The translations under genes were made by a program, and so were the position numbers. DNA of 64,000 nt, taken from Eledone cirrhosa (lineage: Eukaryota). Below are positions 15,252 to 63,721 of the stretch, in pieces. The notes below the pieces were generated by a model. The model saw only the letters and a list, made by a program, of their open reading frames with translations. It was not told the origin of the DNA and did not search any database. Positions within the stretch are counted from its first letter, which is position 1. The number at the start of each line of letters is the position of its first letter. Location: NCBI GenBank assembly GCA_964016885.1, contig OZ024746.1:5456001-5520000 (forward strand), in the 5' to 3' direction.

Positions 15252-15457
15252 AACGAACGAAATGTGGTAAGGAACCAGGTGGACCCTAACGCACCAAAGA
15301 ACTCAATACTTAGGGTAGTAGAGTGGGTAATAGGAACGAGTAGGACCCCGACGGCTGAGCTGAAGCCGTTTCGACGGCTAATTCTGGACTAAATGATTTA
15401 GTCCAGAATTAGCCGTCGAAACGGCTTGAGCTCAGCCGTCGGTGTCCTACTCGTTCC
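15252..15457. mobile_element. Fold-back PLE-derived element, family X
   Basis: Palindrome about 15330-15460 centred on ctggactaaatgatttagtccag; each arm carries a hammerhead 3' half GAAA-CGGCT-tgagctc-AGCCG-TC^; (TA)n on both sides. Confidence 0.85.
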
Positions 15458-16471
15458 TATATATATATATATATATATATATATATATATATATATATAT
15501 ATATATATCCAGGCAGTCAATTGACGCTGTACATGAGGGGGTCATGTCTTCTCTAGTGACCCAACTTTAGCTAAAACCTTCGCCATTGTTATGAACATCG
15601 CAACACTCATTCAGTTAGCCAGTATCATCCGAGAATGTCTTCACATAAAGGTCATTTGATTGATCAAGAATGAAGGCACTATTGACATTTGTACGTGACA
15701 CACACACGCACACACACACATATATATATATATATATACACACACACACACACACACACATATATATATATATATATATATATATATATATATATATATA
15801 TATATATATATATATATACACACACACACTCACATTTCTCTCCGACTTAGTGATGTATTTTATTTATAGTTATATGTCTTTTAATGTGTGTGTGAAGTAT
15901 ATATGCATATTCACATATACATTTATACACACACACACACACATATATATACATATTTATATATATATATATATATATATACATTTATCTATATATATAT
16001 ACACATATATAAATTGAACTGGAGAGTGAAGTTCCAAGTAATACCATCTGTCTCTGAAGTCAATGCTACACGAACATAGAGAATGTCTTAATCTCTCCAT
16101 CTTCACTCCTCTCTCCCTCCCTCTCTCTCTCTCAACCAGAAGGACAGACACACACACACAAACACACACATACACATATATATATATACACTCACACATA
16201 ATACAGACACCCACATTCTCACATACTCTAGGTTTACCACGCCAGTCACACTATTTAGGAACAAAATTCAACAACCTATTTCGTCTGTCTTATTTGTATA
16301 TTGTTATTTCGCCGGGAGGGGACGCTGATTATACATTAACAGATGGACAGGGGATTAAATATTCTTTCCGCAATCAACATTTTGAGATCAAAGCGGACAG
16401 TTTTCTATTTTGAGATTCGTCCTTAGATCGTTGTTAAAATAAATACCAAAGGTATGATCGGTACGATACAA

Positions 16472-16979
16472 ATGACTATATACCTCATCCTCAAATTTCT
16501 AACTCTATGCTAACATAATATATTACTATGACTATATACCTCATCCTCAAATGTCTAACTCTATGTTAACATAATATATTACTATGACTATATACCTCAT
16601 CCTCAAATTTCTAACTCTATGTTAACATAATATATTACTATGACTATATACCTCATCCTCAAATTTCTAACTCTATGTTAACATAATATATTACTATGAC
16701 TATATACCTCATCCTCAAATTTCTAACTCTATGCTAACATAATATATTACTATGACTATATACCTCATCCTCAAATTTCTAACTCTATGTTAACATAATA
16801 TATTACTATGACTATATACCTCATCCTCAAATTTCTAACTCTATGTTAACATAATATATTACTATGACTATATACCTCATCCTCAAATTTCTAACTCTAT
16901 GTTAACATAATATATTACTATGACTATATACCTCATCCTCAAATGTCTGACTCTATGCTAACATAATATATTACTATGA
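16472..16979. repeat. Minisatellite, 56-bp unit x9
   Basis: Unit atgactatatacctcatcctcaaatttctaactctatgttaacataatatattact; copies near-identical with no spacers. Confidence 0.95.
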
Positions 16980-19900
16980 TCTTGTTTAACAAGATCAAAC
17001 ATGAAACAAATCGGTTCTACACTCCACTATTCCGCTATTTTGTATATGTATGACATCATTCATTAGTATGTCCTTCCTTTCTCTTAGACGTGTGATCTGA
17101 GGGACAATTGCGTGCTATTTCTAGCGGGACGTGGGTCTCAGAGGAGAGAGTCTATTATCAGATATGCATTATATACACTTGAAAACAAGCTATAACAAAT
17201 TAATGTTTGCCAAACGTTGAATCGATTCAATACTTTTCTAATTTTTCATTTTACAAATGATTCCACTTCATTAGAAATGACACCATTCTTGTAGATCAAC
17301 GCATGTAATTGATTGACTCAACTAATGTAAATAACTGCTATGTAGTTTGTAGGGCCTTTACGAATGAGAATCCCTCTTGACTAAAAACGATGTTTTATTT
17401 GAATAACTAAAATTTCTGAAAGAATCCGATGTTGTTGGCCATCGTCTGTAAAAACGATATCACTCTTATTTAACAATCAGGAGTTCAACAATCAACAACA
17501 GTAACACGGACGATGCAAGGTTCTAAATTAATTTAATTAAGTCTGCAAGTTAACCACGATACATTCTCATAAGTGTATAGCATGTTATAAACCAACAGTG
17601 GATAGCTGTCTATGGCAAGATGAATGCACGTAATAAAACTCTGGTAAATTATATTCAGATCAAGAACCCCTATGGAGTGACACGTTGAATGGGAAATGTG
17701 AGACTGAGTTATGGAACATATGTTTGTTGTTTTCTATTAGCCCGTGAGAAAATATAAATTCTCTATACTACAGCAAGGAGCGAATCGTTAAATGTACAAT
17801 GTAGTCCTTTTACAGAGAACTGTAACTGCCTGGTGACATTTACAGCAAGGAGAAGTAAACTAGGGAAATTTCCTTTCCCTGTATTTGAAATCAGCTCTGC
17901 ACCTGGAATTCAATATACATCGTTATCACTTTGGCCTGTTGTTACTCAAAAATGGGTTAATGCTGGCACTTTTACAAGTTATACAGAATAGAGTTACGGC
18001 TCTTTACATTCTGAGTTCAAATCCCGCCGAGATTAGCTTTGCCATTCATCCTTACAGTAATGTACTGGGGTCGATTTAATTGTCTCTACCCTATCCCCAA
18101 ATTTGTTGGCTTTGGGGTTAAATGAGAAAGCGCTATTACAAGTTATAGCATTCCATAGCTACTTTTATCATATTCAACACACCCAGTACCACCACTAACA
18201 CCCTGACGACCGCTGACACTACAGTCAACCTTACCACAACCTCAGTATTAACATTTATACTAATACCAGACGATATTCAATGTAATGAGTTTCACCCAAT
18301 AGTAATTTATTAACAAAGGCAAATAACCCACGTGGTCGAAAATGTTCGTAATTATTATTTGTAAACCCCTAGTGAACTAATCGAGTGTGCCTAAGAAAAC
18401 TGTGCTTCACTGATGACGTTTTATAGCACAGAAACATGTAGTAGTACCGTCATTGATATATTTGTTAAAAAACCTTGTAGTTTCGTAGAGAAATTAATGG
18501 TTGCTGCTGTTGTCCTTTAACCTCAAGTCAGTCCTGAATGAGGAGACATATGGTGAGAGGTAGTCATGCAATGAATAGCTTTTTTTCAGACAGAGTGTAG
18601 CTACAACTACATTATGCAGTGCATTCATCCCTATTTAAGACAGACGACAGAATATGGCTTGAGAAAGTTTGGCTGCTCTTTCCAGCAGGCTGTGTGACCA
18701 TTGAGAGGGTCTTGCTGACTAAAGCTTATGTTGTTAGCAATAAGAATAACACTACCTGTGTTCTTATTGGCTATAGTTGAGGTATTAGAGTTAAATAGCT
18801 GCAGGGATCTCCATGCAGTCGTTAATTATTATTTAATTATGGCCATATTGACGTAAGTGGAAGGAGCTGTTTACACAATTAATTAAGGTGGAAGTTTAGT
18901 GATGTTTGTTATTGTTGCCTGAGGAGAGTGGTGGTGGTGGTAGTGGTAGTATTTTTTGAGGCGATGGTGGTGAATATCGTTAATGCTGGCTCAATTGATT
19001 TAATACATTGATAGAAATTGTGTCCTTTTAACAGTTCTGATTGAATCGATCAAGTTATTGATAATTGGTATTACTTGTTTTTGTTGTTCTTGTACAATTA
19101 AACACTCACGAAGTTGATCCAGGACCAAAGTGATGTCAGCCATATTCCTCATGCCATCTCTGTGGAATATTATATCTAAGATTGCTTCATTAAAGTATAT
19201 TTGAGAGAAATGTGGCTGTTGTTTCCAGCATATTAAATGATCATATAGAAGCTATCGTAGAGATAGTGATGGTGGTGTTAGTGGTGACAACGTTAATGTT
19301 GGTGGTACCAACGTTGTCAAGTCTAGTAACCTCAGTAATATTAGTAAAGATGTCATAAAGGCAGTGATAATTGTGTCAGTTCTGCTGGTGACACTGTTAT
19401 TTGGAGTAGTATTAGTTGAGCAAGTTTATTGCTGCTGTTGTTAGTAGTGGTAGTATTATTGACGTGGTGCTGGTTCTCACTGTGTATTTGGTTGTGGTCA
19501 GAGATTTAGTAATGTTACAAATGGTGGTGTAGTTTATGGCGGCAATAATATTGGTGGGATTGGTGTCATTGATAGCAGTGCTGCTGCTGGTGGTGGTGGT
19601 GGTGGTGGTGATTTTAGTGGCAGCATGTTTGTTCTGCTGGAGATGTTGCAAGTAATGTGTTATTGGCAGCGATTCTTTATGTTGCCTGCTCTAGATTTGT
19701 CACTTGGTGTTGATGTTGGAGAGAAATGCAAAAGTTTTCGTAAAAAATCGTTGAGCGCTGTTGAGGTCTTAAGTAGTTTCACCGGGATTGAATGAATTAG
19801 GCTGGAATAACTTTGCTAATGATGCCATAGCAATATCTTTACCACTAGTATCATCACTACTAACTTTTGTCTTTAGATAGCCTCTTCAGACAGGAGGTTA

Positions 19901-63174: not shown

Positions 63175-63430
63175 AAAAGTGACTTCAGTTGTGGTTGATG
63201 TTCTTTAATAATTCAAATCCTTACAATACATCGATATTAGTTCTGGTAAGTCCTTGTTAACTTCTGTGGAGAACACAAAGTCCTTGTTAACTATCTAGGG
63301 AAATTTCTCGCATTCGGTTCGATTTTCAAACTGGTCGGATGTGTTGTGTTGAAGATGTTTATATACGAATTATTGAACATATTTGAATTATTAAAGAACG
63401 ACGTCAACCACCAGTGAAATCATTCTTTCC
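63175..63430. repeat. Diverged inverted repeat in a TA-flanked insert
   Basis: gtggttgatgttctttaataattcaaat versus atttgaattattaaagaacgacgtcaaccac. Confidence 0.65.
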
Positions 63431-63502
63431 CAGTTTTTCCAATTTACCTTACTGTACCAAGGAATTTCCTTCCTTTTCTACTATATATATATATATATAT
63501 AT

Positions 63503-63721
63503 AACAAAGGAATTGTGGTAAGGAACCAGATGGACCATAACGCACCAGAGTACTCAATACTTAGGGAAGTAGAGTGGGAAATAAGAAAAAGTATGACCCC
63601 GACGGCAGAGCTCAAGCCGTTTCGATGGCTATTCTGGACGGCTATTTCTGGACGACTATATGTGTCCAGAAATAGCCGTCGAAACGGCTTGAGCTCTGCC
63701 GTCGGGGTCATAGTTTTTCTT
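63503..63721. mobile_element. Fold-back PLE-derived element, family X
   Basis: Palindrome about 63580-63722; homologous to 20637-20820; (TA)n flanks. Confidence 0.85.

Follow-up and report, generated by a model that had tools for sequence, protein, structure and literature searches.

Five asymmetric palindromes in a 64-kb window of the Eledone cirrhosa genome, which is the whole stretch of DNA analysed here (a 3.0-Gb animal assembly, GCA_964016885.1; contig OZ024746.1, positions 5,456,001 to 5,520,000, forward strand; 34% GC), are very short insertions, or stubs, of an autonomous Penelope-like element (PLE) that is of Hydra type by its motifs. They lie at 15253-15457, 20638-20819, 56432-56625, 57300-57535 and 63504-63720, each between TA runs. 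In every one the long end is fixed and the short end reads CC or CT followed by TA, as a preliminary description of this DNA had recorded. Twin target-primed reverse transcription is their likely origin: either end of a cut TA repeat would prime a complementary DNA (cDNA) of its own, and the pair would be joined head to head.

In this reaction, the main RNA would start at A(-41), inside loop II of a hammerhead ribozyme, leaving a 5' ribozyme copy without the catalytic core and a whole 3' copy (positions are counted from the predicted hammerhead cut, with base 1267 of locus L121 as 0). A nuclease would cut both strands of a TA run, and each target end would anneal via TAT at one of two start sites (+17 and about +96), with one target strand priming per site on the same RNA or on RNAs of one source. 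Synthesis of both cDNAs would then proceed to the 5' end of the RNA and run off it, in many cases acquiring an extra C, after which the two would pair through 0-7 nt of microhomology and the joint would undergo some trimming or re-copying. Long and tandem insertions would arise when a cDNA jumps to the RNA 3' end via the 41-nt overlap (-41 to 0), or from read-through RNA.

Parent element and its two 3' ends

Two versions of a 33-nt tail pattern gave 25,025 and 5,250 exact matches in the genome and none in reversed controls, indicating that the 25,025 matches are not due to chance. A reverse transcriptase (RT) fragment found 5' of one unfolded copy retrieved 134 scored matches, many of them in open frames of 784 codons, and L121 proved to be a tandem of 3,531-bp units. 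The palindrome sequence corresponds to the pseudo-long terminal repeat (pLTR) and 5' leader of this parent, directly 5' of an ATG at +190. The parent frame encodes 717 amino acids arranged as RT, linker and GIY-YIG domain, with YRDDG and VIY..YIG motifs, RWR at residue 37, DKT at 117, CxCX5C at 572, one cysteine within GIY-YIG at 591-608, CxxC at 670 and CxH at 698; neither GxKF/Y nor a CCHH pair within GIY-YIG occurs in the 717-residue protein. Pfam returned no significant match for the parent protein, so its assignment to endonuclease-bearing (EN+) PLEs is based on these motifs and on 2,049 homologous proteins, the best 120 of which share 38-54% identity and are almost all unnamed, the best one carrying PF01541. 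The tandems of 3,531-bp units and the head-to-head pairs by which PLE pLTRs are recognized are both present in L121-L140, and TA runs adjoin nearly all of the 3' ends examined in an unshuffled comparison. The PLE origin and TA targeting proposed in the preliminary description are therefore supported.

Other classifications were considered and rejected. A Neptune-like reading of the protein was dropped on a motif check, as the CX2-5CxxC linker and the CCHH finger were not found. A miniature inverted-repeat transposable element (MITE) or other DNA transposon with terminal inverted repeats is at odds with the unequal ends, the variable centres and the RT-bearing parent, and a non-LTR retrozyme is at odds with head-to-head stubs that lack the core and with tandem units that are coding.

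The short-arm end lies at +17. The preliminary description had viewed it as the point at which a folded cDNA rejoins the target, but it also closes long unfolded copies as their 3' end, including 3.4-kb tail-less arms that bear the open reading frame (ORF) in L128, L130, L132, L134, L136 and L138, and is hence better regarded as a start site. The long end lies at about +96 and adds an extension of ~79 nt, which is the optional tail of PLEs as described in PMC8557442 and PMC3846280. Both ends are observed directly in the genome, and they probably mark RT start sites. In the parent, TAT follows each of the two 3' ends and overlaps the TA target; the TAT microhomology noted earlier is thus real, but L121 has it at the long end as well as at the short one. 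One tailed and one tail-less arm were paired in 58 of 63 cases by script, in sets that were not haplotype-selected and were partly anchored on the tail; a cleaner figure comes from tail-less arms that open with an extra G, 29 of 30 of which have a tailed partner. In contigs of three sequencing runs, possibly from the assembly's own sample, both of the fixed 3' ends likewise have loose ends in TA, and the depth changes stepwise near -41; these contigs are not independent of the assembly and carry no information on RNA.

Arm ends and the hammerhead ribozyme

Arm ends were surveyed in two samples: sample 1 comprised 92 of the first 100 listed matches of the 25,025-match pattern, and sample 2, a young subfamily, comprised 100 listed matches of the 5,250-match pattern, 98 of which remained after de-duplication on identical context (the two copies dropped are probably deep copies). 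Both arms end at a cliff 41 nt 5' of the hammerhead cut, within loop II. Among 169 arms of sample 2, 97 end at -41 to -35, 15 at -45 to -42, none at -100 to -46, which is the range that holds the stem II 5' strand, and 10 deeper; the remainder end at -34 to -1 (32), at 0 (7) or beyond (8). The base before A(-41) in the template is T or C, but genome-wide the -41 motif is preceded by G 6,014 times versus 997 times by A, in AT-rich DNA; another 10,368 contexts are template-like, some of them being partner-derived joints, and none of 30 inspected G cases lies in its natural context. In sample 2, G precedes 17 of 30 arms ending at -41 versus 22 of 87 ending elsewhere (p=0.003), and the third and fourth window copies carry it on both arms. 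The cliff and the extra G together point to an RNA 5' end at A(-41), in a sequence context that we take to resemble an initiator motif. An RNA starting there would explain why stubs never hold the catalytic core. A non-templated G of this kind usually signals that a template was copied up to its RNA 5' end; in L1 insertions it reflects copying of the cap (PMC11702581).

Alternatively, priming may be twin but the cliff may not mark a transcription start: RT may stall, or the RNA may break, in the structured region of stem II and loop II. Position -41 does lie at the top of a predicted extended stem II, and arms ending at the ribozyme cut carry the extra G too, but the cliff is sharp and G-marked at a single base, and PLE promoters within the pLTR have been reported (PMC2377424, PMC3846280), making this explanation an unlikely one. 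Separately, homopolymer runs of A or T were observed in the apices of L101, L164, L233 and L253, possibly resulting from RT slippage at the TTT just 5' of -41.

The ribozyme itself appears not to be broken. In an unconstrained tally of 66 unfolded copies, which are related and non-independent, the core reads UUGANAA in 61 and CUGANGA in none, with U3 in 62, A8 in 65, G10.1 in 62, GAAA in 64, UC in 63 and a variable N7 (35/18/9/4). The unconstrained predicted fold of L121, a single sequence, is a three-way junction with the core at -84 to -78, the stem II 5' strand at about -77 to -67, a long loop II, and a stem III that is a full hairpin of 5-6 bp. By this comparison the core is a U3-A8 type I variant, and the 5' half of the ribozyme would lie 5' of the putative RNA start. 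CUGANGA is indeed missing from the palindromes, as the preliminary description had stated; it is also missing from the unfolded copies on which that description had staked its model, but only because the core is of the U3-A8 kind. Similarly, the hammerhead 3' half with its hairpin after GAAA is retained in the stubs, but this hairpin is stem III, not stem II. Hammerhead was not among the listed 150 best of 244 Rfam matches in the window, as expected because stubs hold half motifs, and the output of repeat finders on the window was dominated by TA runs.

Stem II had been proposed as the primer of second-strand synthesis, with every apex at the GACGGCT/AGCCGTC helix. Stem II is real in unfolded copies, and the apices lie within ~10 nt of its 3' strand. 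However, four of the five window copies run ~10-17 nt past the helix into loop II, and in the copy at 20638 the long arm ends at the helix, yet the short arm goes further in. No product predicted by this model, namely an apex with an intact loop II, was found among 199 two-armed apices drawn from 419 loci and the window, and no arm ends in the stem II 5' strand. Such priming would also require the tailed arm always to be complete, but the tail-less arm is complete about equally often, and tail-less arms of kilobase length are found joined to tail-only arms. Priming by stem II is thus refuted and can be given almost no weight. What remains of the proposed link to the ribozyme is a minor class, seen in L351, L352 and L397 (3 of 98 young copies) and in L134, whose two arms both stop precisely at the cleavage site. 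These suggest that some templates are self-cleaved read-through RNAs, in small numbers and for a predicted cleavage; deletion down to the GC-rich stem is an alternative.

Number of cDNAs per insertion and relation to known systems

In 34 of 35 pairs the two arms of a stub share one common haplotype (only L147 is discordant), versus a fraction of 0.20 expected by random pairing, and arms differ from each other by 1.6 of 51 nt within a copy versus 4.7 between copies (34 pairs), which confirms the mirroring of subfamily bases noted earlier and indicates that both arms derive from one RNA or one source. Since unfolded parents exist, apices vary and arms match within copies, the palindrome is made anew at each insertion, as had been proposed. 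A preformed MITE-like palindrome transposing as a unit, named in the preliminary description as the alternative to its own model, could account for the TA flanks and for one exact junction found 120 times in one subfamily. Against it stand heterogeneous centres, unequal ends, a recurrent junction that is found in either polarity and a sequence that represents the pLTR of an RT-bearing element; concordance of the arms across six haplotypes refutes such a unit, which we therefore consider hardly credible. Two further patterns were discarded as products of selection: CC/CT discordance of the short ends in L001-L030 as a sign of two RNAs, because these copies were selected on that base, and clustered deep junction phases in L123-L140, owing to the bias of selecting by ORF match.

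Within-copy matching of arms is equally expected if a single tailed cDNA runs off the RNA 5' end and folds back inside loop II, its copy then rejoining the TA target at the short end; the commonest junction can even be drawn as a hairpin with a 4-nt loop closed by the extra C. Because fold-back and joining of two cDNAs give identical junctions, the outer ends decide between them: a folded tailed cDNA must always be the complete arm, so a complete tail-less arm with a truncated tailed partner excludes a single fold-back. At the recurrent junction of the young subfamily, the complete arm starting with G lacks the tail at 50 places and has it at up to 70, although 2 of 30 such tailed cases proved tail-less on inspection; the 50 exact cases, together with the tailed partners described above, are impossible under single fold-back. 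Moreover, this route does not account for arms without any overlap (L205, L236 and window positions 519-621), for lone tail-less 3' ends, or for L044, L053, L063 and L068, in which a tailed arm of 80-150 nt (tail-only or nearly so) is joined to a tail-less arm of 0.7-3 kb; the size of these tail-less arms also shows that the large cases do not stem from later loop flipping. Single fold-back is accordingly refuted as the general route and improbable as the main explanation, although it may operate as a minor one, since L123, a near-perfect 3-kb hairpin with a 16-nt offset, is explained more easily by it.

Several other points weigh against twin priming from a capped RNA. Both samples consist of first listed matches from one contig. 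Calls of arm depth are noisy, as sample 1 has artefacts at -48 and some extensions in sample 2 were stopped early by point mutations; they place the deeper end in the tailed arm 17 times and in the tail-less arm 22 times among 60 in sample 1, and 16 and 19 times among 71 in sample 2. In small copies, part of the symmetry could be imitated by hairpin centres that were deleted or flipped afterwards. About 10 of the 30 inspected G cases could borrow the G from the partner arm, and of the 7 arms that end at the ribozyme cut, where a cap is not expected, 4 have the G as well; the extra base may thus be a cap-independent run-off addition, which makes the cap less sure. In one fetched set, none of 11 full-length 5' leaders starts at -41, although L080 does (at ~-41). 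Finally, the RNA start and the cap are deduced from genomic DNA.

A head-to-head structure could also arise by self-priming on an antisense template, and the same layout has been explained in this way for rotifer PLE palindromes (PMC3846280). In E. cirrhosa, the extra base and the cliff fit run-off from the 5' end of a sense RNA, both sides have TA-primed 3' ends, and either arm may be complete; we therefore regard antisense self-priming as very unlikely. The Penelope elements with inverted pLTRs described by Arkhipova et al. (2013, PMC3846280) and Schostak et al. (2008, PMC2377424) do resemble the present family in their head-to-head inverted 5' copy, palindromic joints, one-sided tail and promoter inside the pLTR, but the mechanism put forward in those accounts is self-priming, possibly on antisense RNA, whereas the present data favour two cDNAs from sense RNA. 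For the E. cirrhosa family, the stubs thus argue against the published self-priming explanation.

The preferred reading, twin priming, may extend further, although we hold this wider interpretation only tentatively and at somewhat less than even confidence: PLE insertion would be a programmed two-primer reaction, a single mechanism behind all structural oddities of PLEs. One capped RNA would offer two fixed sites close to its 5' end, at which a protein dimer would prime both ends of the target, yielding two cDNAs comparable to retroviral strong-stop products. With a promoter inside loop II the ribozyme would be split, cutting would be confined to the 3' copy, and 41 nt of terminal redundancy would remain for strand transfer. 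Where that transfer fails, the 200-bp palindromes would result; where it succeeds, pLTRs, tandems, inverted copies and the one-sided tail would.

In this family both start sites are fixed and the two cDNAs overlap, producing a palindrome, whereas in L1 twin priming the position at which the second primer anneals inside the RNA is a matter of chance and the two cDNAs represent different stretches of it. The two reactions are alike in that a second target end primes a second cDNA, the joint forms by microhomology and an extra G marks the 5' run-off (PMC11702581). A closer biochemical parallel is PAc, the Anolis Poseidon element: in vitro, both target strands were cut and were extended from two internal start sites, which delimit the tail (Frangieh et al. 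2024, PMC11167929). PAc shares two internal RT starts, an AT-rich target and a predicted dimer with the present family, but the part of that report considered here describes neither the pairing of one tailed with one tail-less arm nor a cliff at the RNA 5' run-off nor an extra G. Homology between start site and target was not seen there, as opposed to the TAT overlap at both ends in E. cirrhosa, and no RNA ends were found at the ribozyme cut, as opposed to the few insertions ending at the cut in our data (PMC11167929). The stubs thereby tie two start sites known in vitro to the two ends of one insertion.

According to the description of the Hydra clade by Craig et al. (2021, PMC8557442), its members share with the E. 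cirrhosa parent a single ORF with RT followed by GIY-YIG, DKT, a CxCX5C linker, the lack of a CCHH pair, CxxC and CxH near the end around a conserved E/N, (TA)n targeting and a hammerhead in the pLTR. The same description gives RWK where the present protein has RWR, a length of generally <3 kb versus a 3.5-kb unit, a canonical hammerhead core versus U3-A8, and a tail usually of 30-40 bp versus ~79 nt; tens of thousands of ~200-bp two-armed stubs further set the E. cirrhosa family apart (PMC8557442). The U3-A8 core is shared with the hammerheads of Schistosoma Cercyon PLEs, as are G10.1-C11.1 and a base left unpaired close to the 5' side of a long stem II, and Cercyon carries dual motifs on opposite strands, 100-700 bp apart (Cervera and De la Pena 2014, PMC4209133). 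Unlike Cercyon, the present ribozyme has a full stem III of 5-6 bp and a long loop II holding the putative transcription start.

Inverted pLTRs, the tail, TA targeting, U3-A8 cores and two start sites are thus already in print. In contrast, the pairing of tailed and tail-less arms with either arm complete, a G-marked cliff in loop II and a model of twin run-off for PLEs were not found in the literature searched, a search thin on subscription journals, Repbase, and File S2 and the figures of PMC8557442, where the family or its ribozyme may appear. The passages of PMC8557442 on inverted and tandem PLE insertions with a one-sided tail treat their origin as open, and the corresponding part of PMC11167929 defers it. 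The E. cirrhosa family, with tens of thousands of countable minimal insertion products, provides a genome-scale record of this poorly understood mechanism, and an exact RNA start and cut site can be predicted from it. Such stubs could easily be taken for MITEs in annotation, and searches for the canonical hammerhead overlook the U3-A8 core.

Copies in the window and other repeats

The centres of the five window copies vary, with 0-36 nt of inserted or re-copied sequence. In the first copy, the tailed arm (15253-15396, minus strand) comprises the long 3' end, the tail, the cut site, stem III and the stem II 3' strand and reaches -47, and the tail-less arm (15396-15457, plus strand) runs from -45 to the short 3' end, each arm overshooting the -41 cliff by a few nucleotides. 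The tailed arm of the second copy (20638-20764, minus strand) ends at -30, shallower than its tail-less partner (20766-20819, plus strand), which starts at -40; the greater depth of the tail-less arm speaks against fold-back of a tailed cDNA. The third copy has a tailed arm (56432-56569, minus strand) that extends to -41 plus one non-templated base (G in RNA sense, at 56569), and a tail-less arm (56579-56625, plus strand) that opens with the extra G at -42 and contains an internal deletion. In the fourth copy, the tailed arm (57300-57440, minus strand) likewise reaches -41 plus the extra G, the tail-less arm (57475-57535, plus strand) again opens with the extra G at -42, and the centre (57441-57474) consists of short, re-copied arm-end pieces, as would result from repeated priming at the joint. 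The fifth copy comprises a tailed arm reaching about -40 (63504-63639, minus strand), a centre of 24 nt of re-copied and non-templated sequence (63640-63663) and a tail-less arm from -40 (63664-63720, plus strand).

A sixth copy, absent from the preliminary description, occupies 519-621 and consists of an inverted tail-less arm and a tail-only piece; its arms do not overlap, so no hairpin forms. The tail piece stops early, at an internal CGTTAT that resembles the long end, which suggests a third, minor start site. Partial copies include a lone tail-less arm (30386-30444, minus strand), followed by a 6-nt partner stub that opens with the extra G, and a lone tailed arm (49112-49206, plus strand) that starts just 3' of the cut site. 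Among the fetched loci, chains were also observed, with new stubs often lying in the TA run beside an older copy (L020, L034, L126, L134, L139, L159, L197 and L306), and in L056 the hammerhead is interrupted by a GIY-YIG-like coding fragment, apparently from a different element.

Seven more head-to-head palindromes occur in the window (718-980, 6598-6909, 29735-29854, 39635-39813, 45531-46000, 55582-55752 and 56081-56295). They represent about six other dispersed families, five of the seven having CTGATGA followed by GAAA, and in most of their homologs among the fetched loci one arm ends on TA while the other is longer by a tail of ~20-45 nt. To judge from this layout, they probably stem from other PLE families whose stubs share the geometry described above. 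The window also contains a SINE-like (short interspersed element) repeat of ~185 nt, with 84-95% identity between copies (8683, 25535, 32283, 33945, 36768, 47413, 50447, 52241 and 60190), several near-identical duplicated blocks of 450-690 nt at 20931-24932, and tandem arrays at 16472-16963 (56-nt period) and 49469-50008 (30-nt period). A tRNA-like Rfam match at 61590-61659 (35.5 bits) is possibly a SINE head.

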